64,000 nucleotides of DNA. Origin: an uncultured Gammaproteobacteria bacterium. Its GTDB lineage: Bacteria > Pseudomonadota > Gammaproteobacteria > DRLM01. Every line of letters starts with the position of its first letter. Positions within the stretch are counted from its first letter, which is position 1. The position numbers were made by a program, and so were the translations under genes. The stretch is from positions 352,001 through 416,000 of the forward strand of contig CAVSNY010000003.1 of assembly GCA_963729605.1 (NCBI GenBank). Direction: 5' to 3'. Positions 3,572-25,980 of this stretch are shown one piece after another. Below the pieces are notes generated by a model. That model worked only from the letters and a program-made list of their open reading frames with translations. It did not search any database and was not told the DNA's origin.

Positions 3572-4887
3572 GCGGGGATGTTCATCCTTTGCGTGATATC
3601 GAATTGCGGCGGCGTGAGTTCGCGGTTCACCAACACGCTGTCCGCGCCGTCGACGCGCAGCCGCAGCCATTGCTGACCGGCGCCGAGCGCGGGGAAGATA
3701 AAATCAAGGGTGCCGGTTTGTACGGTGATGTCACCCGGCGCTTCGTTGCCGCCGGCATTGAGGCTCACGGTTTGTCCCGGCCGCACCTGCGGAGTAAAGG
3801 TTAAGGAGATCGTCACCGCGCCGCTGCCGGCGTCGCGCACGGCGCTCGAACCGGGAATATCAAGGCGCGGCGCCAGCAGCAGGGGCAGGCTGTTGCTGCT
3901 GCGGTCGAAGGTCTCGCCGGGACGTTGCAATATCACCGTGACGTTCCAAACGCCGGGCGGCCAGGCGAGCCGGGCGGCGGCGTCATTGGGCAGGGTCACG
4001 GTGATGTTCTCGCCGTTGGCGTTGAGGCCGAGATTTATCTCGATGGGGTTGACGAGGCGCGGGTGTTCGAAACGCACGCGCACATTGCCGCCTTCGAGGT
4101 TGTGGCCTTGCAGGGTGACGACGTCGCCCTGCTGCGCGGCGATTTGCTGGTGAGGCAGGGCGATGGCGGTGAGCATGGGATAGGGCGGAATCAAACCTCC
4201 CACCGCCACCACGCCGCGTTCGCGGCCGGTCGCGAGGTCGCGTTCGCCGCGCGTCAGCACCGGCAGGGCGTTGCGCGTCGCGCGGCGCGATTCGATCAGC
4301 ACCACCGAGAGGTGGTAGGCGGCGGTGGGACGATAATGGCCCTGGATCGCCGACCAGAGTTTCGACATCTCTTCGGTGCTCAATGTCTCCGGCGTAATTT
4401 TGATTTGCTCGACCTGGTCGGCGAGATCGGCGGCGGCGAGGGCCTGAAAGGCGGGCGGCAGGATGGAGCTGTCTATCGTACCGCCGCTCAGCGCGGTGCG
4501 GATCGCCTGGCGGTCGAGCACCGGCGTCTCATGCAGCAGATGCATGGCGTAGCCCAATAAGATTTCGCTGTGCAGTTCCGCCGCGCCGTAGGCGGTGAGC
4601 AAATAGTGCAGGTCCAACGCCAGCGGTGGATTGGCGAGACGCGTGCCGCGCTCGTCGCGCGAGGGCAGGCCGACGTTGCGCCAGCCGGCATTGGGCGTGA
4701 CCTGGTACAGAAACAGATTGAGCTGGGTGCGGGCGTTGGTGCCGTCGATGGCGATGCTGTCCGGCGGCACGGCGGTGACCGTGACGTTATTGCCGAGCGC
4801 GCCGGTGATGTTGTGGTCGATGAGGCCGTTGTTGAGCAGATCGCGCAACACGGCGGTGACGGCGGCGAGGGCGAGCGGGCTGCTCAT
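3568..4887 (-). CDS. DUF4255 / Pvc16-like tail terminator (cap) protein with C-terminal Ig-like domains
   Basis: MSSPLALAAVTAVLRDLL...QLNLFLYQVTPNAGWRN...PPLALDLHYLLTAYG...EEMSKLWSA pattern; start at 4887. Confidence 0.88.
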
Positions 4888-5027
4888 GGCCGCGCTCCGT
4901 CCGATGTCGATCGCGGCGGGACGAGTTTCGCGCGGCATGCCATCGGCGGCGGATACGAATACGCCGTGGCGCGGACGGCGCGCGCTCGATACGCTGCGAC
5001 GGTAATGATGATCGGCGCGCCGTTCAT
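4884..5027 (-). CDS. possible 47-aa peptide coupled on both sides
   Basis: MNGAPIIITVAAYRARAVRATAYSYPPPMACRAKLVPPRSTSDGARP; ATGA overlaps with both neighbours. Confidence 0.4.
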   Translation of the reverse strand: MNGAPIIITVAAYRARAVRATAYSYPPPMACRAKLVPPRSTSDGARP

Positions 5028-5794
5028 GGTTTGCCTCCGCCGCGTTTGAGGTAGTCGGCGAGCGATTGCGTCGGTTTGGGTTCAGTCCGCGGACGTGACG
5101 CGGGCGGCGGCGCGGTGTTCGCCCGCACTTCGATACGGCCGATGCTGATGTGTATCGTCGGCGCGGCCGAGCCATGCCGATCCGCCATGTCGGCGGCGAA
5201 CGCGGAGGGCGCGGGTGTTTCGCTGGAATTCATTTTATTGGCGGGGACCAAGGGCGGCTGCTCCCTCTCCCCTACCCCCTCTCCCGCGAGGGGAGAGGGG
5301 AATGAAGAGGTCGGCGCGTATTTTGACGCATCCGCGGTAAATCCTGAGTTACTTGTCGGCACACTGTTTTGTGTATCGCCCGGCACAAGCCCCTCTCCCC
5401 GCGCGGGAGAGGGGTTGGGGAGAGGCTGAGCCGACATGTGAGCGACGGAGGTAAAAGCCGCATCGTCACTTTTCCTTTGCGGAACGTCCGGTTTGTTATA
5501 CGCAGCGGTTTTCTCCCCTTCTCCCGTAAAGGGGAGAGGGGACGCATATACCGCGTTCGGTGCTTTTGCGTTCCCTCCCTCCGCGCGGGGAACGCGCAGC
5601 GAGAGGGGCAGAGCCGGTTGAGGAGAGATAGAGAGAGCGTCATCGGTTCCAGACGCATTCTGTGAAATGAGACTCGAGATATCACGCGCCGCGCCCTCGT
5701 GTTCGAAGGGCGCGAACAGACTCGGCAGCCGCGGCGCGATCAAAGGCGCCGTTCCCAAACTGCGTTGCGCGAGACGGCTGAGGAAATCGCTCAT
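5024..5794 (-). CDS. eCIS hypothetical protein with low-complexity middle containing in-frame palindromic repeats
   Basis: N-terminus MSDFLSRLAQRSLG...PRLPSLF and C-terminus PTIHISIGRIEVRA...SLADYLKR are typical of this locus type; ATGA-coupled. Confidence 0.75.
   Translation of the reverse strand: MSDFLSRLAQRSLGTAPLIAPRLPSLFAPFEHEGAARDISSLISQNASGTDDALSISPQPALPLSLRVPRAEGGNAKAPNAVYASPLPFTGEGEKTAAYNKPDVPQRKSDDAAFTSVAHMSAQPLPNPSPARGEGLVPGDTQNSVPTSNSGFTADASKYAPTSSFPSPLAGEGVGEREQPPLVPANKMNSSETPAPSAFAADMADRHGSAAPTIHISIGRIEVRANTAPPPASRPRTEPKPTQSLADYLKRGGGKP
5262..5630. repeat. about four REP-like CCCTCTCCC/GGGAGAGGG hairpins inside a CDS
   Basis: Copies near 5262-5300, 5390-5425, 5511-5541 and a degenerate one at 5571-5630; translated as SPLAGEG, SPARGEG, SPLPFTGEG. 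Confidence 0.75.
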
Positions 5795-11748: not shown

Positions 11749-12139
11749 GGGGGAAGCTTGAGAAAGGTCAATGGTAATGATGATCATTGGTTGTTCGTGC
11801 TACTTAAATTAAGAGATTAAATGGGACGGCTATGTACTTCAAAACTTTTTAAGCATGAAAAACGATTGTAAGCGTCACGTTATTCATTATGAGCAGTGGG
11901 ATGCTAAATCACCTTTTAAATATTATCCATCACCAATTTCATTATTGCGCGATATTCCCGATTCCATTTCAAATGCGGAGGATATGGACTGAATAAACCC
12001 AAGCCATTTTTTGCCGCCTTTAATCGTAACGAACGATTGTTTGGCGCCATCTTGGTGCGCCGGGGTTGCATATCGGCTTTGTCCCGGTTGGGAACGTACA
12101 AAAATCCGCTCTTGTCTGGCCTTTGGGGGTCCATCCTAT

Positions 12140-12167
12140 TATGCGCATAATCATTACGGTGGTTGAA
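12140..12167 (+). other. dif-like attachment site (XerC arm and core intact, XerD arm degenerate)
   Basis: TATGCGCATAA-TCATTA-CGGTGGTTGAA shares TGCGCATAATCATTA (15 bp) with the site at 13954. Confidence 0.8.
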
Positions 12168-12520
12168 CTCGGCATGGTCATATTGCCCCCCTTGTGAGCA
12201 AAAAATAAAGGTTTTCGCAATGAAAAAAGCCTGTGCCTGCCCCAAAAGCGGTTTTGCAGGCGCGGGCTGACCTTGTAGAACACCCCTCGGCAGATGCCGC
12301 GCCGCCGCCGCTGCGGTAATTCGAGGCGTGGCAGGAAGAGTTAACAGCTTCGCTCCGCTACGCTCACCGGAGCGCCTTCGTCGCGATTGAATACCCACTG
12401 CCGTGGCAGGACACGAACGGCGCGGGTACGGTGGCTCGTGCCTCGCCATCCGGATCCGCGCCGCTGCGGCTACCCGTATCTCGGATCCTGATGCGACGGC
12501 TGTTTTTAACGATGCGGACC

Positions 12521-13108
12521 TCATACCACGTCATCCAGCGGTTGAGTGCATCGAAAGAAATCGTTGATCTCAAGGGACGGGTTATGCGTCATGTCATCCG
12601 GCCAGTCCTCGGGATACTCACCCAGGCGCTCGATGACCACCCGCCAGTCCCCCATGAACTCGATGCTAGCCACAATCGCCTGGGTGCCCACCGGCCAAAA
12701 GGCCCAAAAGGCCTCCTCCGGCGGTCCCCAGGGCGCGACCACCCGAAACTCGGCATGCAAAAGGCGCATGATGCGCCAGGGTTCCTTGGCGAGCAGATCC
12801 ACCAATTCGGAATGCGACGACACGCCAAACCACGCTTGAGACTGGGTGGGGACAGGCCCTTGCAACGGCACCGCAACCCCGGCGGCCTTGAGAATGGCGA
12901 GATGCTGAGGCCAGAGGGCAGGGGAGACCCGTTTACGGGCCTCCGCCCAACCCAGGGCGTTGGCAAGACACCACGTACCGTAAGCCCCACCCGCGAGCTC
13001 CGCCGGATCGGCCAACAGAGGGGCACCCACCGACGGCGAGAACACGGCGACCTGACACGCCTGGATCAGTCCAGCCGCAAAGACCCCTGAAATAAGATGG
13101 TCATTCAT
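12521..13108 (-). CDS. protein resembling the C-terminal (pX) part of filamentous phage II/X replication proteins
   Basis: 195 aa, GGGGAGG RBS. AYGTWCLANALGWAEARKRVSPALWPQHLAILKAAGV aligns without gaps, by eye, to the recalled Ff pX segment YFGFYRRLVNEGYDSVALTMPRNSFWRYVSALVECGI. Confidence 0.55.
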   Translation of the reverse strand: MNDHLISGVFAAGLIQACQVAVFSPSVGAPLLADPAELAGGAYGTWCLANALGWAEARKRVSPALWPQHLAILKAAGVAVPLQGPVPTQSQAWFGVSSHSELVDLLAKEPWRIMRLLHAEFRVVAPWGPPEEAFWAFWPVGTQAIVASIEFMGDWRVVIERLGEYPEDWPDDMTHNPSLEINDFFRCTQPLDDVV

Positions 13109-13528
13109 GGCTCAGACCTCCCCGATTGTGGTGGTGAGAATCAGGGCGAAAACCCGAAAGTGAGCCACCATGGCTCAAGAGTCCACTGGTTATAGTATGT
13201 GGACTCTCGTCATGCACCACGTCGGTGCAAGACGAAAAAGTGGGTACTTGCTCATGGCTCAGACCTCCCCGATTTGGGATGAAAAAGTCCCACCCGTGAG
13301 ACAAAGTGGGGGTTGTTACAGGGGACCCCCACTTAGCCGCGGCGATCACAAAGCGACCTTCATGCCAAGCTTCGGACTGGGTGCGTACTGACCCTTGAAA
13401 GGGGGAGGTGGCGGGATGCTTATTCATGGTTCAGCCCTCCCCGATGGTGGTGGTGAGTGCCACCCATGGCACTTAGTGCGGGTGTTACTGTTACCCGCAC
13501 ACCCCCGGCGATCACAAAGCGGCCTTCT
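13105..13528 (-). repeat. three tandem units, each a double hairpin (Ff-type plus-strand origin) followed by a shared RBS-ATG leader
   Basis: Hairpin pairs at 13160-13207, 13287-13334 and 13456-13500; 22-bp leader ATCGGGGAGGKCTGARCCATGA at 13105, 13252 and 13424. Confidence 0.85.
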
Positions 13529-13916
13529 TGCGTTGAAGCCTGTCCTGATTCCATTCGAGCTCCGCCTGGCCGAGCTGGTGGCGATAGTCGCGGATGAGCT
13601 GGTACAGGAAGGGCAACACCTGGATATCGCCCGGGGCGAGCCCACCCTTGGCGAAGCCCGGCGGGAACAAGTAGCCGTTGTGCACCTCCCAGCCGTCCCA
13701 GCCTGGCCAGGGCACATAGCCGGCCTGAATAGCCAGCAGTCGGAGCGCCGTGGGATTCACCGGCCGGTCGCGACCCCAGCGCCGGTAAGTCTGCTTGGCG
13801 ACCAGACAGAGGGCCGCCGCTTGCACGGTGCTGAGCCCGGCCAGCGTCTGCAAGGGCCGCGGGGTGGTCAAATTGCCCTGATAACCTGCTTGAAGCAACT
13901 CGGTTAACTCCCTCAT
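13512..13916 (-). CDS. filamentous phage DUF3653-like regulatory protein
   Basis: HTH-like LSTVQAAALCLVAKQTYRRW followed by WPGWDGWEVHNGYLFPPG (W.GW....G.L..P); lies next to dif as in inoviruses. Confidence 0.75.
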   Translation of the reverse strand: MRELTELLQAGYQGNLTTPRPLQTLAGLSTVQAAALCLVAKQTYRRWGRDRPVNPTALRLLAIQAGYVPWPGWDGWEVHNGYLFPPGFAKGGLAPGDIQVLPFLYQLIRDYRHQLGQAELEWNQDRLQRKKAAL

Positions 13917-13953
13917 GAGGTAGGCCCTTTATCGGATTTTGGCCCCCTCGCAT

Positions 13954-13981
13954 AGTGCGCATAATCATTATTATGTTAAAT
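13954..13981 (+). other. dif: dif site (XerC/XerD)
   Basis: AGTGCGCATAA-TCATTA-TTATGTTAAAT versus E. coli GGTGCGCATAA-TGTATA-TTATGTTAAAT; XerD arm identical. Confidence 0.93.
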
Positions 13982-14094
13982 TATGGAAGGGCCCAAGGTA
14001 ACAAAAGGTTTCTCCCACGAATTTTTCCTGCCCCACCACCATCGCGGAGCACCATGATTTCGCGGACAGCAATCGTCTGCTCGGACCTGGAATC

Positions 14095-14260
14095 ATTCGC
14101 CGAAGCCAGCCGTGATCATGGACCTAGTCCACTGGGTATTCCATACGCACATAGCGATGAAACGTCGAATGCGGCCATTCGCGCATTCGTTGTACCCATC
14201 CATGTTTCACGGGGGTGTAATGGATGTAGTTCACGCATCGCCCCAAGTCCGCTTCGGCGC
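14095..14260 (-). pseudogene. C-terminal remnant of a REP-associated tyrosine transposase (RAYT)
   Basis: DLGRCVNYIHYTPVKHGWVQRMREWPHSTFHRYV matches the RAYT YIHxNPVKHG...WPxSSFHRY pattern; N-terminus absent; decayed GTAG REP at ~14320-14349. Confidence 0.75.
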
Positions 14261-14490
14261 GGACCGGCGCGGTGTTCCCACAGGCCATATTCGCCTTTTC
14301 ACTACGGCGTTTACATTCGGCGGATCGCGTTGCACGCATCTGCCCTACGGCCCTTGGCCTCCCATGATCGCGTCATAAAGGAGTTTCCTTTTTAAGAACA
14401 TTGCCTTCTGTCAAATCAAAAAGCATCTCAAAAAGTTTTTCAGAATCCAATTCAGTAGAAAAAATTTCCAACCACAAGCCATCATGCCCC

Positions 14491-15808
14491 TGAACCGCCC
14501 CGTGTTTTGCGGAGGCTGTTTGGTTTAAGTCATGCTGCAATCGCAGCATGACGGCGGTATTGCCTGTAGTAGTTTGCCTCAGCTTCTGCTGGAGGGATAT
14601 ACCCCAGAGGCTCTAATAGCCGGTGGTGGTTAAACCACGAGACCCATTCCAGGGTCGCCAGCTCCACGGATTCCCGGGTTTTCCAGGGTCCCCGACGATG
14701 GATCAGCTCGGCCTTGTACAGCCCGTTGATCGTCTCGGCCAATGCGTTATCGTAGCTGTCGCCCTTGCTGCCGACCGAAGGCTCGATGCCGGCCTCGGCC
14801 AGTCGCTCGGTGTAGCGGATCGAGACGTATTGCGAGCCCCTGTCGCTGTGATGGATCAGGGCATCCTCTGGTTCGGGCTGCCGGGCGTACAGAGCTTGCT
14901 CCAGTGCGTCGAGCACGAAGTCCGTGGCCATGGTGCGGCTGACCCGCCAACCGACGATGCGCCGGGCGAAGACATCAATGACGAAGGCCACATACAGCCA
15001 GCCCTGCCAGGTCGACACATACGTGAAATCCGACACCCAGAGCTGGTTGGGCCTGTCCGCCTTGAACTGTCGATTGACCCGGTCCAGCGGGCGTGGCGCC
15101 GAGTGGTCAGGCACGGTGGTGCGAACCGCCTTGCCACGGCGCACACCCTGCAGGCCCAGGCGCTTCATCAGACGCTCGACCGTACAACGGGCCACCTCGA
15201 TGCCCTCGCGGTTCAGCTGCCGCCAGACTTTGTCGGCGCCGTACACCTGCAGGTGGGTGTGCCAGACACGCTGAATATGCGACATCAATACCTCATCGCG
15301 CTTGGCCCGGGCGCTGCGCAGATCCGGATCGCGCCGCCGGGCCGCATGGCGCCGGTAGGCCGATGGGGCAACCTGCAACACCTTGCAGATCGGCTCGACC
15401 CCATAAGCATCCCGGTGCTGGTCGATGTAGGTATTTACGACTTCAGTTTGCGGTCGAGCTCCGCCTGTGCGAAAAAAGCGCTGGCGGTACGCAGTATCTC
15501 ATTGGCGCGCCGCAACTCCTTGTTCTCGCGCTCCAGCTCCTTGATGCGCTGTGTCTCGGACGTGGTCGTGCCAGGACGCGCTCCGGCATCGGCCTCCGTA
15601 CGCTTAACCCACTCCAGCAGCGTCCCGGGTACACAGCCAATCTTCGGGGCGATCGACTCCACGGCCATCCACAACGACGGGTATTCCCCGCGATGCTCCT
15701 GCACCATTCGAACCGCACGTTCACGGACTTCAGGTGAAAACTTGTTCGACTTTTTCATGGCTCCATTCTCTCAAATGTTGGAGCCTCCTCAAAACCAGGG
15801 GCGGTTCA
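14491..15808 (-). mobile_element. IS3-family insertion sequence (1318 bp)
   Basis: Terminal IRs TGAACCGCCCCGTGTTTTGCGGAGGCT and AGCCTCCTCAAAACCAGGGGCGGTTCA, flanked by C runs (3-4 bp target duplication). Confidence 0.95.
14530..15758 (-). CDS. IS3 transposase OrfA (15435-15758) and OrfB (DDE), programmed -1 frameshift
   Basis: Orf[20 protein letters not shown]; Orf[26 protein letters not shown]; T6C run near 15471-15477. Confidence 0.93.
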
Positions 15809-16063
15809 CCCCTATTAATAACAAAGCGGCTATGTTTTACAAATTCTTTTGCATTTTCGGAGGAATCCCCAAAATCGTCTTTAAATGAATGTTTCAGAAA
15901 TTCCAATGAGCTTGGGTCAGCATATAGAACAAAGAGAGTCTCATTGCCGGAGATATTCCATGAGCCCGCGTAGGGCAATGAAATGGACTCCTCCCTCCTA
16001 ATCGGCATCGATGTGCCAGACTGTTGTTTGTAAGCAAACAGTCAATAGCAAGGAGGAGTCCAA

Positions 16064-16987
16064 ATGAAGCTTAAACGAATCGGTATTGATCTGGCAAAGA
16101 GCGTATTTCAGGCGCATGGCGTAGATAGTCATGAGCACGTCATGTTGAAGAAAAAGTTGAAACGTCATGAGGTGCTGAATTGTTTTCGCCAGATCGAACC
16201 CTGCGTGGTTGCGATGGAGGCTTGTGGCAGCGCCCACTACTGGGCTCGGGAGCTTGAGAAGCTCGGCCATCAGGCAAAACTGATTGCCCCACAATTTGTT
16301 AAGCCCTATGTGAAGAGTGGCAAAAACGACGCCAATGATGCCGAGGCTATCTGCGAGGCGGCCAGCCGTCCCGCCATGCGCTATGTTGCAGTGAAAACTG
16401 CCGAGCAACAGGCCGGACAGGCCTTGCATCGAGTCAGGAGCCGATTGGTCAAGGCACGCACCGCGCTGGAGGATGGCGAGAACGAGCTGCCGGGACCGAT
16501 GCGAGAACTGCTCGCTCAACTGTCAGAAGAGCTTGAGCAGAAAGATGTCCACATTGCCCTGCTGGATCGGCAGATCAAAAATCAGTGCGCTCAAGATGAG
16601 CGCATCAGACGCCTGATGGCGCTCGAAGGTGTCGGCCCCATCAGCGCCAGCGCGATAGTCTCAGCCATCGGTGATGCCCGCCAGTTCAAGAGTGGCCGGG
16701 ATCTGGCCGCCTGGTTGGGGCTGGTTCCCAGTCAACACTCCAGTGGTGGCAAGGAGCGATTGGGGGCGATCTCAAAGCGCGGCGACACATACCTGCGCAC
16801 CTTGTTGATTCATGGAGCACGCGCGGTGATCAGCCGCTGCGAAAAGAAAGAGGATCGTAAGAGCCAATGGCTCAAAGGAATCATGGCGAGGCGCAACAAG
16901 AATATCGCCACGGTAGCGCTTGCCAATAAAAACGCCCGTGTTATCTGGGCAGTTCTCAGTCGCGGTGAAAATTATCAGCCGGCCTGA
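16064..16987 (+). CDS. IS110 DEDD transposase, apparently with an in-frame internal deletion
   Basis: IGIDLAK, MEACGSAHYW, KNDANDAEAI, GLVPSQHSSGGK; 307 aa with KARTAL joined directly to EDGENELP. Confidence 0.92.
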   Translation: MKLKRIGIDLAKSVFQAHGVDSHEHVMLKKKLKRHEVLNCFRQIEPCVVAMEACGSAHYWARELEKLGHQAKLIAPQFVKPYVKSGKNDANDAEAICEAASRPAMRYVAVKTAEQQAGQALHRVRSRLVKARTALEDGENELPGPMRELLAQLSEELEQKDVHIALLDRQIKNQCAQDERIRRLMALEGVGPISASAIVSAIGDARQFKSGRDLAAWLGLVPSQHSSGGKERLGAISKRGDTYLRTLLIHGARAVISRCEKKEDRKSQWLKGIMARRNKNIATVALANKNARVIWAVLSRGENYQPA

Positions 16988-17461: not shown

Positions 17462-17914
17462 TTACGAAAGTTCAATCCAGTTTGGATGATCGCGAAGAGG
17501 AAAATTCTTTTTTAAATGTTTTTTTACTGAAGATAAATCTATATTGTCACAATCTGACGGGGATAACCCTATAGAAAGATTTTCCTGAGCAAGTTTAGAC
17601 TTCGCTTTTCTTAATAAAGGATTTGCGTAACAAATAAGGTATCTTTTATCTTCTTCTTGATACCGATGAGATAATCCAATTAGTCGGATAGCCATTTCCA
17701 AATTTTCAATGGCAGCTTGGTCTGCGGAAGTCGCATAACATAAAAAACCTTTTAGCAAATGGTATTCAGCCTTTTTACCAGAAAAATGTTGATCAATTTT
17801 CTCTAACTGCTGTAGAGCGGACTGGTAGTCGCCTTTCGACGCAAAATCAAGACTTCTGACCCATCGTAAAGCTATGCCAGGCGCTATAAAAATCTTCTTG
17901 AAAAAATAAGTCAT
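17462..17914 (-). CDS. putative immunity protein (TPR-like helical)
   Basis: 150 aa, AT-rich, 8 bp downstream of the toxin gene; KGDYQSALQQLEK...AEYHLLKGFLCY. Confidence 0.7.
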   Translation of the reverse strand: MTYFFKKIFIAPGIALRWVRSLDFASKGDYQSALQQLEKIDQHFSGKKAEYHLLKGFLCYATSADQAAIENLEMAIRLIGLSHRYQEEDKRYLICYANPLLRKAKSKLAQENLSIGLSPSDCDNIDLSSVKKHLKKNFPLRDHPNWIELS

Positions 17915-17922
17915 ATTGAAAC

Positions 17923-20900
17923 CTAATCCTTAAATACCTCAAATATTATTCTAACAATCTCCACAGCTTTTTCACCAAAGGTCCTCGGCGCAGGCGTAGG
18001 TTTTTGAGCCTCAGCAGCCCGTTTCAGACCCTCAAATAGCTGCGATTCAGCATACTTTACATCCAGAGTTCCAGCCTTAATTTTAGAAGCATTTATTTCG
18101 CACTGTTTTCGTAATAAGAGCTTTTGGGCGGGACTAAGACTTTGTCCAGCGACTTCCTTCAACAAAAAATTCAATTCACTCGTATTGCCTCTTAGAACAG
18201 CTTGGTAGACTGCCCCCTCAATTGAGTTCTTGGGTATGATCAAACCAGAGGGGTCGGTTAAATTAATCGGATCATTGAGCACGTAGGCATAAAGATTAGT
18301 TCCATCGCCTGCAAATAAAATCGGATCCTTCGCCGTCCACCTCCCCGTCTCCGCATCATAATCCCGCGCGCCGAAGCGGGTGAGCTTGGTATGCTGATCA
18401 TAGATACCGCCCGCAAAGCCAAACGGCTGGAAGCCGGGGTTGGTGTCTTGGGTAATATAGCCGAACTCATCGTAATCCAGTCGTTGAGCGATGGCTCCGG
18501 TGGTCGTATTGACGACCAGTCTCGGACTGCCCAAGTGATCAGAGAGAATGCGGTAGGTCTCGCCGCCTTTGATCAGGTAGTCCGGCACGTTGAGCTTGCT
18601 GCCGTAGACGAAGCGGGCGACGACGGCGCCGCTGCCGTTGAGTTCGGCGACGGGGTTGAGTTGGTCTTGGTAGAGGAAACCTTGAACCAGCGTGCCGTTG
18701 AGCTTTTTACCGACGCGACGGTTGCGGCCGTCGATGAGGTAGTCGATGATCGTGCCGCCGGGTAACGCGACGTGGCGCAGATTACCGATCACATCGTAGC
18801 TGTAAGTGGTGGTTGTTCCGGAAACGGTTTTGCTTAGCAATTCGCCGTTGGCGGTGTAGCCGTAGGCGGCGCCGTTGTAGCCGGTTAAACGATCTTGGGC
18901 GTCGACAGTGGCGGTGATGGCGCCGCGGCGGTCAAAGCCGCCGAGGCGGTTGCCGTTGCTGTCGTAGCTGTAGCTGGCGACGGTGGCGCCGTTTTGTTTG
19001 ATTTGGTAGAGCCGGCCCGGCGTGTCGTAGATGTAGTCATAGGTGGTGGTGACACCGGCTTGGGTCTCGATCTTTTGGGTGATGCGGCCGAGTTTGTCGC
19101 GGGTGTAAGCGGCGTTGTAAAGCGCGCTGCCGCTGTACGCCGCCGAGTGGCCGGCCAGTTCGGCGAAGCCATTGTAGCTTTGCGCGGTGCTGAGGTTGCC
19201 CAAAGCGGTGGCGGTGAGCAGGCCGTTCTGCGCATCACGAGTGAGGGTTACCGCGCCGGCTAGTGTCAGCAGGCCGTCGTTGTCGTAAGCGTAGTTGATG
19301 GCGCTGCCGTTGACGGATAAGCCAGTCACTTGAAACATGTTGTTGTAGGCGCGGCTGACGCTGCCGGCCACCGCCCCGCTCCAGGTTTCATTCACGGGCA
19401 GGAAGCCGTCGTAGGTGTAATCGAGGGTATCGCCCGACGGCGCGGTGAGGCGGGTCACTTGCCCACGAGTGGGATCATAGCTCACGGCGATTTGCCCCTG
19501 CGGCAAGACGACCGCGCTCAAACGGCCGCCGGTGTCGTAGCTGAAATCGATGCGCTGATTATCCGGCCGGGTGATTTGGGTGAGCTGCTTGTCGAGGTTA
19601 TAGCTGTAATGCGTGACCGTCGCGCCGCCGGACAGCGCGGGCGGCGTGTAGTGGTCTTGCTGATCGACGGCGGTGTAACTGAAGGTATGGGCGCCGCGGC
19701 CCGGCGGGGTGATCGAGGTCACGTTGCCGTTGGCGTCATAGCCGTAGGCGATGTGACGGCCGTCGGGCAAAGTCTGTTGCGTCACCCTGCCCGCGAGGTC
19801 GTATTGGAAGTTCATCGCCCGGCCGAGGGCGTCGGTGAGCGACGCGACGTAGCCGCCGGGGTTGTAGGCCAGCGCGACGGAACGCGCCGCCGCGCCCGTT
19901 CCCTGATTGATGCCTTGCAAACGGCCGCGGGCGTCGTAACTCCAATTGATCGCTTCGATACCGCTTGCCTGGGCAGTAACCAGACGGCCTTTGACGTCGA
20001 GGACCGCGCTGCTCTGCCGCGACAGCGGCGTGGTATCGGTGAAGGTGCGGTCGGCGGCGTTATAGCTGCTGGTATAACTGCGGCCGTTGATGCTGAGGGT
20101 CGTGGTCTCACTGGTCAGGCTGAGCGGATCGTGCGCCGTGGCGAGCGTGGCCGTGCGGGTGATCGTGGACGTTGATGTCAAACCGCTTGGCGTGGTGATG
20201 GTGGTATTTTTAGGCAAGGGCGCCTGCATGCCGAAGCGCGGATCGGGACCATGCAGGACGCTGATCATGGTGCCATCCGGTTCCAGCCGCGTCTCCGTGC
20301 CGTCGGGCTTGACGGTGGTAATGGCAAGGGTGCCGTCGGGCGCGGTGTTGGTGCGGCGCACATCACCGATCGGCAGCCGTTCCACCGCGTAACTGGTGGT
20401 GCGGCCCAGGGCCGAACTCATGCTGACGTGGTAGCCGGTTTCGAGATCGGCGCGGGTCAGGTTCCAGAAACCGCCCGCGGCGTTTTCATCGCGGGTCAGG
20501 CGACCGCGGGCATCATAGGTCATGTGCGAGGTGTGATTGCGCGGGTCGGTGAAGCTGAGCAGCAAGCCGTCGGCGGTATAAGTCGCTTGATAGGATTCGC
20601 CGGCGGGATTGGTGATGTGAGTGAGGTAGCCATTGGCGTTTAAGCTCAACGTAGTGCGTTGGCCGTCGGGCGCGACGATGGCGGTGGGTTGGCCAAGGCT
20701 GTCGCGTTCCACGGTAGTAACGTTATTGGTGCCATCGGTGACGGTGGTGAGGTAGCCATTAGCGTCATAGCTGAACTGGTAAAGCACGGCGCCGGTGCGA
20801 GCGTCAAGGGTGCGGAGATGGCGGCCGGAGGCGCTGAAGTGATAAAGTTCGGTGCCGTCACGCGATGCAATTAGAAAGTCACTAAGTGATATGCCCGGGA

Positions 20901-23900
20901 GAGTAGATGCTACCTTGCGGATACGAATATTGAATAAGTCCGCAATGTACAAATTGCCTTGTGCATCCGTTACTACACTTCGGGGGTTAAAAAACCTCGC
21001 CTGGGTGGCCGGTCCACCGTCGCCGCTGTAGCCCGGCGTACCTGTGCCTGCCAAGGTGGTGATACGCCCGTTGGAATCCACCTTACGGATACGCTGGTTG
21101 CCAGTGTCCGCAATGTACAGACTACCCTGTGAGTCCAAAGTTATGTCGGTAGGATTTGCTAGCCCGGCTTCGGTAGCGGGTCCGCCATCGCCGAAATTGC
21201 CAAAGTTCCCCCCTGCGACGGTTGTGATGTCTCCATTAGGACTTACCTTGCGGATGCGCTGATTGTTTGTGTCCACGATGTATAAATTACCCTCGAGGTC
21301 CAGCGCTATACCATGAGGTTGATTTATTTTGGCCTGTAAAGCCGGTCCGCCATCACCACTGTAGCCATCCACGCCTGTGCCTGCGATGGTGGTAATGCGC
21401 CCGGCGGGGTCTACTTTGCGGATGCGGCTGTTGAATGAGTCCGCGATGTAAAGATTGTTCTGGCCATCTACCACTACACTCCGAGGGTTAGAAAGTCTGG
21501 CCTGGATGGCGGGTCCGCCATCGCCACTGTAGCCCTGCTCACCTGTACCAGCTACTGTGGTGATGTACCCGGTAGGGTCCATTTTTCGGATGCGCTGGTT
21601 GCCAGTGTCCACGATATACAGATTACCCTGGGTATCCACTGCCACATCGGAAGGAGCAGCAAGCATAGCCTGGATGGCGAGCCCGCCGTCCCCGGCGTAT
21701 CCTGATTCACCGACACCAACTACAGTGGTGATTATTCCGGTGGGATATACCTTGCGTATGCGCTGGTTATTTAAATCTGCGATGTAAAAACTGCCCTCTG
21801 CATCCACCGTCACTGCCCATGGGGAATAAAACATAGCCTCAGTGGCGAGTCCGCCGTCGCCGCTATTGCCGAAAGCTGTCTGACCTGTTCCCGCCACGGT
21901 AGTAATTACCGTATCAGCTCCATTTCCCTGGCTAATTCTAGTGGTGCCGTCGCCTATTTGGAGCACTAAGCCTGCGCTGTCATACTGATGGTGCACATTT
22001 AATGTCCATCCACTCATGCCGTGAGCTTTAACATCCTCGTTTTTTATCGACTTAGAATGGTTTTGCCATAACGTGATTTCCTGACGGGCGATATTTCCAG
22101 TCATAGGCGTACCATTTGAAAAAGCGGCAAATGCCGATCCCGATGATAATGATATTGGGGTTAGATAAACTCCGTTATAAACATAACCGATCTTAATCGT
22201 CCCTGTTTGTGTACCCTGCAACGAGTTACCGTAGTCATCGCTGCCATCCCAGATAAAAGTGTAGTGTTGATTCGGCAGTGCGGCGAAGCTTTGAAAAAAT
22301 CGCTGCCCTGCCACCTCGATGATGAGTTCGATACGCTTGAGGCTGGCGGGCACGGTGGTGTTGCTCAAAGGGATGTTCACCGTGTAGCCGGCTTTGTGGC
22401 CGGGCACGCGGTCGCTGCGATAATGCAATGAGAACGGGGTGCCGGTAATGGGCACGGTCTCACCGAGCACCTGGTTCTGGCACTCGATAATGGAGCCCTG
22501 CTCACACTCCGGCTCGTCTTCTTTGATTTCGACCTTGGGAGGCGACGGTGGATTGGGTGGCGTCGCGTCCGGCGGCGGGCCGAAAGGCCAGTTGCAATCC
22601 CAGGGTGTGAAGTGGATGACGGGCACGCGCCACAGGCTTTTGCCGGGCGAATACAGCGTGGCAAGTTGGGCGCGTTCGGCGTCGGTGATGGTGAGCGCCG
22701 CGAGGGCGGCGGCGTTGGCGGGGTTGCCGCTGCCGTCAAGGTCGAGATTGGCGAGGCCGTTGTTGATGCTCAGCACCTTGATGATGCGGCCGTTGTCGGA
22801 CGGGATCCACGCCGCTCGTTCGCGGTTGTAATACCCCGCCGGCACGATGCCGCCCACCGGAAAGTTCAGGAAATTATCGACGTAGAAATAAACCGGTTGA
22901 GTGAAGCGCACGTCTTTGGCGCCGGCGGCGATGGCTTCGTCGACGCTGAGCTCCACGGCGTAGGTGTAACCGCTATTGGGCGGCAATGCGCCGGGCATGG
23001 TGTTGGGACCGTTGGCGCCCACGGTGTATTCGGTGGCGCGCACGTGCAAGCTGGTCAAGGGCTGCGTCGAGCCGTCTGCCAGCACCATCTCCGCTTGCGT
23101 GCCTTGCGGGAAGAGGATGGTGGCCTGGCGGGTGCCGTCGCTGTCGGTGACCACGTTGCCCCGCGCCGCTTGCATGGGAATGGCGGCTTGCAGATTGATG
23201 GCCGTCACTTGGCTGTCGACCGGAATCATCACTACCTCGGGCAGCCAGGCGTAGTCCTGCCAGGGCGCGTTGACTTGGCGCTGTACCGGCAGGTAACCGT
23301 CTTTTTGATAGTTCACGGTGAGATAACCGCCGCCGTTGACGGCGAGATCGAACATGCCGTCGGCACGGCTCAAGGTCTGACCGAATTCGGGGTGTTGATG
23401 AATGGTGACGGTGACGCCGCCGAGTGCGGCATTGTTGCGATCCAGCACCTTGCCGCGCAATACCGCGGCGCGGCGGGCTTCGATGGTACCTTGCGTCACG
23501 CCGGTTTGAATGGGGTTGCTACCGGTATAAAGAAACTTAGTCGCGGCGAAAACCGTGGTGGCGACGGTGGGGTCCACCGGCGGTGCGACGGTCGCCGGAT
23601 CCGGCGGCAGCGATGAAGTTACCGAGGTGCTGGCGGGCGCGCTGGTATTGCCGGCGGTGTCATTGACGCGGATGGTCAAGGTATCGCCGCCCTGCGCGGC
23701 GATGTTGGCGTTGAAGGCGCCGAGGCTGTTGGCCGTCGCCATCACGATGTCGCCGGTGCGGGTGTTGGTGAGGGTGACCCGTGCGCCCGCCTCCACGCTG
23801 CCGGCGGCGCCGGTGACGTTGACGATGCCATTGCTCGGTTCACTCACCGATACCGATCCCATCTGCACGGCGGCGGGTGCCTGGGTGTCGAGCACCAGGG

Positions 23901-25602
23901 CGAATAACTTCTGCGCGGTTTCTCCACCGGTGGCGGTGGCGATGAAAGTGAAGTTGTTGTTGCCTTCGCTCAACGAAACGTTTTTGGTGAAGCTGTTATC
24001 GGCGGCCACGGTCAACGGTGCGTTGTTGACGATGAGGGTCGCCGGTTTGCTGAGATGGCCGCTGATGGTTTGCGCCGCGAGATTGGTGACGTAGCCAGTG
24101 GGCGGCGTGTCGATGGTGACGCTCAGTGGGATGATGCCGTATTTCGAAAGAAATATATCGGTAAGGCCGACCGCGCTCCGGGAATCAATGGCGGTGCCGG
24201 GATCAAAATCGATGGTCCCGCCAAAATCACCCGTGATGTAAGCGGCGGTTGCCGATGCCGCCACCGCATTGACGGCCGGGTTACCGGAACCGCCGATGCT
24301 GCGGGTCCATTGGTAGGTGCCGTCGGCCTGAAACAAAGTGAGAAAGGCGCCGGTTCCCGCGGGAAGGCTGCGTATATCCTGGCCCGTGCCGGGATCGAAA
24401 TCCACCGTTCCTGCGAACACGCCGCTCACCAGGACACCTTCGCTACTCAGGCTTACCACGCCCCGCCCCTCGTCTTGACCGGCGCCGCCGAGGGTGCGCG
24501 TCCAAAGGTAATTACCGTCAGCCGCCAATTTGGTGAAAAAGATATCGTTAACGCCGTTGCTGGCGCGGACATCAGTGCCGGTGCCGGAAAAATCGACACT
24601 GCCGGTGAATTTACCGGTCACGTAAACCCCACCACTGCCGTCTACCGCGACACCTTTACCCTCACCGCTGCCGGAGCCGATGAAGGTGCGGGTCCAGCCG
24701 TAGCTGCCGTCGCCAAGATATTTGCTGACGAACACGTCGCTGCCGCCGGAGGAGGTATGGATATCGGTGTCGGGACCGGGATCGAAGTCCGTGTTGTTCT
24801 GGTAATAACCGGTGATATACGCGGCGCCGCTGGCATCCACCGCGACACCCTGGCCCGCGTCCCAGTGCGTGCTGCCAACGGTGCGCGTCCAGCCATAATC
24901 ACCGTTAGGCAGCAGTTTGGTGAGAAAGATGTCGTAGCCGCCTACCGCGTTGCGAATGTCGGGCGGACCACCGGCATTAAAATCCACATTGCCATTGAAC
25001 CGCCCGGTGAAGAAGATGTTGCCGGCGGCATCCACGGCGACGGCGTAGACCGCGTCCGGACTTGCACCGCCGAAGGTGCGGACCCAGCCATAACTACCGT
25101 CGGCATTCAATTTGAGCAGAAAACCGTCGTAACTGCCGCTGGTCGTGCGATTGTCCACCCCCGGACCCGGATCGAAATCCACCGTGCTGCTCGAAAATTC
25201 ACCGGCGACGAACACATTCCCGGAAGCATCCACGGCAACGCCATAGGCGAAATCGCTGCTGACACCGCCTACGGTTTTGGTCCAGCCATAACTACCATCC
25301 GCGTTGGTCTTGGTAATGAAGATATCGTCGAGACTGCCCACCGCAGTACGCTGATCGATACCGGTGCCTGGATTGAAATCGACCGTACCCCGGAAGGAGC
25401 CCACATGATAAATATTACCTTGGCCGTCGACGGCGACACCTTTGCCGGAGTCTGACTTACTACCGCCGACAATAGTTGTCCACTGGTAGGTGGGGTCGGC
25501 TTGTGAAAACGCGGGGATTAATAAGAAACCAAGAAAGGTTATGAGGGTGAACAGCCCATGCGCCACTCTACGCACGGCCGCTCCATGCCGGATAGGGTTC
25601 AT
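17923..25602 (-). CDS. teneurin-like YD/RHS-repeat protein with beta-propeller, Ig-like and NHL domains and a C-terminal toxin domain
   Basis: Signal peptide; SBBP-type repeats (GVAVDxxGNxY.. VDFDPG); NHL repeats (GYSGDGGPA, LYIADxxNxRIRKV); YD repeats; RHS core RFGARDYD...[10 protein letters not shown]; RBS GGGAGGAG before ATG 25602. Confidence 0.93.
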
Positions 25603-25980
25603 CGTCTCCTCCCTGATCAACGATAAATTTTGTTATTCTGGCTCGTTCTTTTATAGCTCGATTACTTTTTTCGCTTCACGCCTTGTCCCTGGCGCGACCC
25701 CTGCAACGAACTTTTATTACAACCAGTAAATTAGCTTGTTCTTAATTTTTCATGAATAACGCGCGATAGTCATTTTTCGAAAAGCCTAGTACCAAATTTT
25801 ATAAAACGCAAATTTTTAAAGACACCAACGACCCTGCGTGCCATCCCTCCTTGCGACAAGCGGATAATAACATCACCAGCAACGGCGGCCACGCGGTTCG
25901 AAACGAGTCGAACGGTCAACACTTCAAATGCTGACGGGCCGCCGGCAGTGGAAGATTACGTCAATGATCTATATTGTTCC

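Follow-up and report, generated by a model that had tools for sequence, protein, structure and literature searches.

The stretch of DNA analyzed here, called the window, comprises 64,000 nucleotides of an uncultured gammaproteobacterium (contig CAVSNY010000003.1, positions 352,001 to 416,000), and it carries a 1.8-kb unit at the chromosomal dif site. Two dif-like sites enclose a gene for a XafT-like Xer activation factor, three double hairpins, a 195-codon open reading frame (ORF195), and a non-coding tail (Table 1). An earlier note, made from the letters of the window alone, had described such a unit, and that observation is confirmed. The two sites are direct repeats whose starts lie 1814 bp apart (repeat family D4), and the 15-nt dif core occurs twice in the whole 3,475,565-base genome, with no occurrence of the reversed control. 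All three double hairpins are present, with a weak second stem in module 2, and the 195-residue ORF belongs to a real protein family.

Table 1. Features of the unit at dif (window coordinates)
Feature	Position	Strand	Description
attL (pseudo-dif)	12140-12167	+	Host XerC arm TATGCGCATAA, spacer TCATTA, degenerate element-derived XerD arm CGGTGGTTGAA
Conserved box GGGCAATATGACC	12176-12188	-	After a T-run; adjoins the degenerate XerD arm
Non-coding tail, 353 nt	12168-12520	-	Between ORF195 and attL; local hairpins (e.g. 12351-12374)
ORF195, 195 aa	12521-13108	-	GGGGAGG ribosome site 8 nt upstream
Module 3	13109-13215	-	Hairpin 3a 13178-13207 (loop atactataacca), 3b 13161-13177, ATCGGGGAGG ribosome site, ORF195 ATG; model 19.9 bits, E 0.03
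21-codon ORF, orphan start	13190-13255	-	Behind the module-2 ribosome site; repeat family D1
Module 2	13254-13345	-	Hairpin 2a 13304-13334 (loop cccctgtaaca), weak 2b, ATCGGGGAGG, ATG; model 41 bits, E 6.7e-8
Remnants between modules 1 and 2	13328-13427	-	Second ORF195 start, internal ORF195 fragment, second xafT 3' end
Module 1	13428-13511	-	Hairpin 1a 13476-13500 (loop aacagtaac), 1b 13456-13473, ATCGGGGAGG, ATG; model 40.7 bits, E 8.2e-8
XafT-like Xer activation factor gene, 134 aa	13512-13916	-	Start 38 nt from dif; helix-turn-helix (HTH) plus DUF3653-type domain, below curated cut-offs
attR (functional chromosomal dif)	13954-13981	+	Element XerC arm AGTGCGCATAA, spacer TCATTA, host XerD arm TTATGTTAAAT

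The XerD arm of the right-hand site agrees with the canonical sequence at 11 of 11 positions and that of the left-hand site at 4 of 11 (7 mismatches). The left-hand site keeps its XerC arm and spacer next to a degenerate XerD arm, as in IMEXs (integrative mobile elements that exploit Xer) of the TLC type; in the TLC attP site, 8 of 11 XerD-arm positions deviate, according to the available part of PMC9226527. On contig C3, the cumulative GC skew reaches its maximum at ~380 kb, with dif at 364 kb, and GGGNAGGG words flip polarity at dif (37 forward and 8 reverse to the left, 4 and 9 to the right). Given the nearby skew peak and the polarity switch, this is therefore the true terminus (dimer-resolution) site.

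The 134-residue protein encoded beside dif matches NCBIfam NF040522, "VC1465 family Xer recombination activation factor" (E 5.4e-10). The description DUF3653-like, given to it at first reading, is correct at the family level only, because the lone protein misses Pfam while some of its relatives match: among 23 aligned members of the XafT-like family, 7 match PF12375 (DUF3653) and 14 match HTH_3. A tblastn search of 50,697 phage records matched only the TLC-Kn1 record (a VC1465-like gene) and a record named CTX-phi ("DNA binding protein"); PHROGs returned weak, uninformative families only. At 16 of 25 genome-contig loci the XafT-like gene lies at most 200 nt from dif in the orientation seen in the window. 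TLC-phi uses XafT to activate XerD without FtsK, and many proteobacteria have DUF3653 genes clustered beside dif, as stated in the portion of PMC6744903 that is available.

Little else is encoded between the two sites. The five ORFs of the element contain no Pfam family, including any integrase, and genes for XerD and a XerC-like protein lie in other parts of the genome. No nuclease replicase (Rep), Zot, or coat gene was found in the element, in agreement with what was first noticed, and neither Phage_CRI, Zot, nor REP_ORF2-G2P occurs anywhere in the genome (G000, 94.5% complete). Having no nuclease Rep and no morphogenesis gene, the element cannot replicate or package itself. The view of it as a minimal, replicase-less, dif-integrated element that uses host XerCD is supported by these data.

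Empty sites of the kind that the earlier note had proposed to look for do exist. In a genome of the same genus (G001), a syntenic left flank (sigma-54 activator gene, 76% identity) leads into an empty dif, TATACGCATAA-TGTTTA-TTATGTTAAAT. The metagenome evidence comes from assembled Logan contigs of sequencing runs X1, X2, and X4; no RNA run was among the runs listed, no run contained half of the sequence words, and no go-back joint was listed for the contigs. A contig of run X4 passes from window position 12128 to 13956 with 12 other letters in the gap, and one of run X1 from 12151 to 14178 with 91; these empty-site contigs connect the left flank directly to the right-hand dif. Run X1 also holds low-depth pieces that are 100% identical to the element alongside its empty-site contig. 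Neither element protein was found in any of the three other genomes of the genus when these were searched with protein queries. That near-identical flanks carry the element in some metagenomes and not in others, even within one run, speaks against an inert relic, that is, TLC-like IMEXs that integrated in tandem and collapsed by deletion to leave fixed debris with two frames open by chance. We regard such a relic as improbable, also for the reasons that follow.

A profile of the ORF195 family, run against 400 sampled genomes of the class, found three matches besides the genome of origin (G174, G400, and G021). G174 carries a dif-xafT-ORF195-pseudo-dif unit twice in tandem (1582 and 1605 bp), G400 has a dif-to-pseudo-dif unit of 1213 bp in the orientation of the window, and G021 has an xafT and ORF195 pair beside dif that was followed to the contig end, where the far end of the unit was not found. 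Among named assemblies, L035 has a unit of 1379 bp and L021 one of 2286 bp with two ORF195-like genes, both running from dif to a pseudo-dif; in L020 the gene pair lies beside dif and the far end was not found. Scans of genome contigs and of JGI metagenome contigs gave no match to the ORF195 family. In every genomic context examined, the ORF195-family gene stands directly downstream of xafT. The architecture is thus not unique to this genome, a point on which the first reading had asked for a search, and the recurrence of an intact two-gene unit with both att sites in hosts of several different families speaks against a relic.

Tandem copies bear on the same question. In L034 (5937-8122), two 1079-bp tandem units with an xafT-like gene and a hairpin, and without an ORF195-family gene, differ at 8 of 1107 positions, and the two G174 units differ by one frameshift and one variable patch; near-identity of this kind argues for recent activity and against a relic. 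On the other side, the G174 frameshift falls in one ORF195 gene copy, so that decay does occur, and at the dif of G007, a genome of the same family, L017 (G007:C2, 8973-10190) holds a 744-bp xafT-only unit and a 450-bp remnant bounded by a further pseudo-dif, as a relic would lead one to expect. The same short peptide-coding stretch is found in both the 744-bp unit and the 450-bp remnant.

We consider it more likely than not that the unit in the window is a natural minimal IMEX of the TLC type. Judged from homology, the TLC-phi literature, and the TLC-type anatomy of the sites, the XafT-like protein would let host XerCD recombine attP (AGTGCGCATAA-TCATTA-CGGTGGTTGAA) with dif, a reaction that would integrate a circular form and could excise the circle again. 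In the accessible parts of PMC9226527 and 10.64898/2026.06.12.731946, attP plus xafT is the minimal content that suffices for XafT-driven integration and excision, and mini-TLC suicide plasmids with attP and xafT only are reported to integrate at ~1e-1 (10.64898/2026.06.12.731946). Replication and transfer would be supplied by other elements: a Rep-bearing relative or a phage that enters the cell would amplify the unit and take it along, perhaps with ORF195 as a Rep-domain adaptor or regulator. Xer-mediated cointegration with a helper genome may offer a second route.

ORF195 has 5 close homologues among 5.8 billion clusters, and in a search of 1.84 billion representatives its family came to 27 clusters at E<=1e-3. 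An AlphaFold (AF2) model built on a 27-sequence alignment, with a predicted local distance difference test (pLDDT) score of 88.1, predicts a helical, winged-helix-like N-domain followed by a C-terminal SH3-like barrel. Residues 11-80 align with residues 313-371 of the 410-residue Phage_CRI replicase of a related element (hhalign 95.9%, E 6e-9), and hmmsearch also matched the N-domain in L023, L025, L030, and L040; the Reps of the related elements had been identified by Pfam and phmmer. Judged from these alignments, the N-domain and the C-terminal domain of Phage_CRI Reps are homologous, and the latter has the position in Rep that corresponds to pX in Ff pII. The designation pX-like given in the earlier note therefore stands for this domain and fails for the protein as a whole: because G2P_X_C is unmatched and an SH3-like domain is added, ORF195 is a family of its own and not a truncated Rep. 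A distinct two-domain family of 27 clusters is again not what a relic would leave behind. The only G2P_X_C match was a weak one in one relative (E 0.096-0.12); in the ESM Atlas the best score for ORF195 was 0.86, and one cluster at 0.84, to be taken as a lead only, has G2P_X_C on 13% of its members. Pfam, PHROGs, and NCBIfam held nothing for ORF195, and Foldseek searches of PDB (both models) and of BFVD gave nothing at E<=1e-3. Weak structure rows for a WYL activator (DriD) and for SH3 proteins were not used as evidence. In the contig variants of run X2, 6 of 10 changes lie at third codon positions among the variants listed, too few for a selection test.

The winged-helix-like N-domain (Z about 5) brings to mind a different role, in which ORF195 would be a new initiator that replicates the excised circle with host factors. 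The non-coding tail behind ORF195 does hold two 10-nt direct repeats, CGTGGCAGGA. An iteron search of the corresponding tails found no repeat family in any of three relatives (G174, G400, and L035), however, ORF195 has no match among 72,556 plasmid records, and no HUH or other catalytic domain was detected in ORF195, so that an autonomous replicon is very unlikely. The tail, which is ~88% conserved in one sediment-metagenome contig, had been described as a structured stretch of ~350 bp; its fold is not significant overall (z -1.56, with 5 of 100 shuffles folding as well). A scan for sigma-70 promoters found 0 sites and Rfam gave 0 matches.

The three hairpin modules share one plan, with a first hairpin that has (C/T)(A/T)GTAAC at the end of its loop, a short second hairpin, ATCGGGGAGG, and an ATG. 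As single-stranded DNA (ssDNA), the three double hairpins fold with z-scores of -2.56, -1.42, and -2.90. A covariance model found the hairpin only at the position between xafT and the next gene in 405 kb of loci, gave a new match in G400 exactly between xafT and ORF195, and in the genome of origin returned the window copies only. In an alignment of 14 sequences, 86.4% of cells are paired compared with 65.2% in shuffles (0 of 500 reach this value) and 8 of 10 pairs are changed on both sides, values inflated by the choice of the sequences through a hairpin scan and read with one of the 14 (L038) failing to align. Hairpin 1a and the hairpin of L040 have identical 9-bp stems, compared with 42% identity between the XafT proteins; conservation of the hairpin beyond that of the flanking genes is a further argument against a relic.

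The array itself carries traces of its history. Between modules 1 and 2 lie a second ORF195 start (ATG at 13427; repeat D1, 88%), a 39-nt internal ORF195 fragment (13365-13403; D3, 77% DNA identity; PFQGSVRTQSEAW versus PLQGPVPTQSQAW, 9 of 13 residues, E 9e-4), and a copy of the xafT 3' end (13328-13365; D2, 82%). With such gene stubs between the modules, the three-hairpin array is therefore a product of recombination between related units, and the window copy is a composite of two or three of them. These stubs, together with the orphan 21-codon start after module 2, are what a relic would also show, and the caveat in the earlier note that tandem prophages might have collapsed here is justified to that extent. 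The relatives carry one module. G400, G021, and G174 each have a single module at the same place, from xafT to the next gene. In a sediment-metagenome variant (X2), the intergenic region is ~156 nt long, compared with 403 nt here, and contains parts of modules 2 and 3 only.

Larger relatives with a replicase are found among the Chromatiales. Eight XafT IMEXs of 2.1-5.7 kb (L023, L025, L029, L030, L032, L037, L040, and L041) have a Phage_CRI or REP_ORF2-G2P replicase added, and an XRE repressor lies at the far end in 6 of the 8 (L023, L025, L029, L030, L032, and L037). The hairpin follows xafT in L029, L030, and L040, is weak in L025, and was not found in L032, L037, and L041; in L029 it lies upstream of rep with nothing between, and in L030 and L040 it marks the junction of xafT and rep. 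The three stem types united in the window element are common to Rep-less and Rep-bearing relatives (the L040 and L029 types). In L023 (Thiocystis violacea), a second hairpin was seen at 3943-5032 on the other side of dif, upstream of a Phage_CRI-type Rep; with this second hairpin and Rep beyond dif, the IMEX array may extend past the scored dif.

What the hairpins and ORF195 do can be addressed only tentatively. The reading that we favor, at somewhat less than even weight, is that the hairpin module is a cis site for the Reps of Rep-bearing relatives, for packaging proteins, or for both, and that ORF195 is a Rep-domain adaptor or regulator. The cis-site part is suggested because the hairpin precedes rep in relatives, because the loop is conserved with varying stems, and because phiLf-UK offers a precedent: the available text of 10.1101/2024.03.19.585677 describes a 120-nt ori+PS segment at the 5' end of gII, with a DUF3653 domain that binds the PS hairpin. 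A more far-reaching and less probable proposal is that a widespread family of two-gene mini-IMEXs of 1.2-1.8 kb at dif might be parasites or antagonists of larger Rep-bearing IMEXs, equipped with their own Xer activator, a free Rep C-terminal domain joined to an SH3-like barrel, and a cognate origin or packaging hairpin; the window copy would then stack three hairpin specificities to hijack or block several helper replicases.

The element might instead protect both its host and the dif site that it occupies from Rep-bearing IMEXs or filamentous phages that come in, with ORF195 acting as a dominant-negative protein and the hairpins titrating Rep or packaging proteins. In Ff phages, pX restrains pII, and the homology of the ORF195 N-domain to a Rep C-terminal domain would fit a similar use here, as would three stem types in one element that are common to Rep-bearing relatives, a two-module variant in another metagenome (X2), and persistence of the element in 5 of 5 hosts without a helper. 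Yet the relatives carry one module, so that the array is not a family trait, and the gene stubs explain it as a recombination product. Interference as the function of the element appears rather unlikely to us, from what the sequences suggest.

Several results weigh against a mobile minimal IMEX with a cis-acting hairpin. The XafT-like protein has no Pfam match at E<=1, and its NF040522 score of 39.3 bits is below the curated cut-off of 70 bits. Pfam G2P_X_C (PF05155) does not match ORF195 at E<=1, nor its N-domain taken by itself at E<=10, and structure searches with the predicted fold gave nothing strong (best Z 5.4; Foldseek E >= 0.0095). The frameshifted ORF195 copy of G174 belongs here as well, and unequal Xer exchange between sister chromosomes can produce tandem copies with no free circle involved. 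It is just as conceivable that the hairpin acts as RNA and controls translation of the downstream gene. No Phage_CRI or Zot was found in any of the five mini-unit hosts (G000, G174, G400, G021, and G007; REP_ORF2-G2P was searched in G000 only), so a helper would have to come from outside; the lack of a helper, like that of a Rep nuclease in the element, is equally what a relic would show. Neither protein has a relative in IMG/VR, and ORF195 is unmatched in the 50,697 phage and 72,556 plasmid records, with no free or packaged form on record.

XafT-type IMEXs are already known. What is known of IMEXs comes mainly from Vibrio, Xanthomonas, and Neisseria, where they are phages, satellites with their own Rep, or large islands. 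In the literature we found neither natural two-gene units without Rep, nor the ORF195 family, nor the conserved hairpin described, with the reservation that the supplements of PMC6744903 may list DUF3653 in some taxa, and no paper on minimal or defective IMEXs. Natural counterparts thus exist for attP plus xafT, the least that functions as a laboratory construct: several families of environmental bacteria contain 1.2-2.3-kb units with a conserved hairpin and second gene, with two cases of near-identical tandem copies (that of L034 without the second gene). These units show that mini-elements without a replicase recur as a type and are not debris. They raise the questions of how an element spreads without replication or transfer genes, what a free Rep-domain protein does, and whether mini-elements resident at dif affect settlement by larger IMEXs. 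The combination of dif, a XafT-like gene, a hairpin with a GTAAC loop end, and ORF195 provides a signature for annotating such units and for locating dif.

The edges of the unit have features of their own. The box GGGCAATATGACC is found exactly beside attL in the window, G400, L021, and both G174 units, and a near-copy with 1 mismatch lies at 13866-13878 in the xafT 5' coding region (0.21 matches are expected per 64 kb). The box and some 30 nt around it resemble the xafT 5' coding region (GNLTT motif), and in a circular form two similar boxes would flank attP; these may be a binding site or a gene remnant. The idea that the box is itself the XerD arm was dropped because its distance from the spacer differs among elements. 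In G400 (L052, 7150-7195 and 8340-8380), both ends of the 1213-bp unit show the same 16 nt past the XerC arm (ACAGCACCGGCCAGAA), so that the repeat reaches past the 28-bp site into the expected host flank. A long hairpin 3' of ORF195 is seen in G174 (L051, 7700-7810) and G400 (L052, 7230-7310), with the shared base CCCCGTAGTCCAC ... CCCACGGGGG and ssDNA fold z-scores of -5.5 and -4.4; the window has no clear counterpart. It could be an element resembling a minus-strand origin.

Outside the unit, ~190 bp at 11945-12139, from the flank shared with G001 to attL, are absent in G001 and present in the empty-site metagenome contigs, and one metagenome contig has an 8-nt insertion, ATTGCGCG, at 11943. 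To the right of dif there is no synteny with G001, where other DNA follows dif. Judged by motifs, the stretch 14124-16987 seems to encode part of a REP-associated tyrosine transposase, an IS3-family transposase in two ORFs, and a transposase resembling IS110. Farther on (17462-25620), a 2565-residue protein is Rhs/YD-repeat-like judged from its translation, and the 150-residue ORF that follows may encode its immunity partner.

Among the known systems closest to the element is TLC-phi of Vibrio cholerae. Both use an attP with a degenerate XerD arm for integration at dif, and neither has an integrase. TLC-phi encodes an Xer activation factor with HTH and DUF3653 domains, of which the XafT-like protein is the putative counterpart, and the prophage, like the element, is bounded by a degenerate site and a functional dif. 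TLC-phi has its own replicase, the HUH protein Cri (PMC6744903, in the part available), whereas the element has none. The xafT 5' end faces dif in the element, whereas it is the 3' end that lies against the junction in the TLC-Kn1 record; the XafT-like protein shares 36.8% identity with that of TLC-Kn1 over 45% of its length, and the hairpin covariance model found nothing in this record (best 5.1 bits). The Rep-bearing Chromatiales IMEXs share the dif-xafT arrangement with the element but lack both a protein with an SH3-like domain and the GGGCAAWATGACC box.

Other systems resemble the element in single respects. It differs from an inovirus prophage in having no Zot/pI-type assembly ATPase, coat, or Rep, and in its length of only 1.8 kb. 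The RS1 satellite and pdif modules are likewise small and reliant on host XerCD sites. RS1 encodes its own Rep, RstA. The pdif modules are plasmid-borne, are framed by inverted XerC/D sites, and contain no Xaf gene, as far as the available text of PMC7399989 describes them; the sites of the element, in contrast, are direct repeats on a chromosome, and ORF195 has no plasmid match. In phiLf-UK of Xanthomonas, as in the element, a DUF3653 protein (PSB15) is accompanied by a short hairpin cis segment near the start of the next gene. According to the part of 10.1101/2024.03.19.585677 at hand, that segment requires its stem plus specific loop bases, PSB15 is dispensable for integration, and phiLf-UK has full morphogenesis genes. 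No likeness in sequence between its hairpin and those of the element was seen, although no test aimed at this was made. Like pX of the Ff phages, ORF195 would represent a free-standing replicase C-terminal domain without the nuclease domain, but ORF195 is encoded by its own gene and not from a start inside rep, and an SH3-like domain is added. Finally, the mini-TLC plasmids are laboratory constructs on an R6K/RP4 backbone that are delivered by conjugation, whereas the element described here is natural and combines its Xer activator with a second conserved gene and hairpins.

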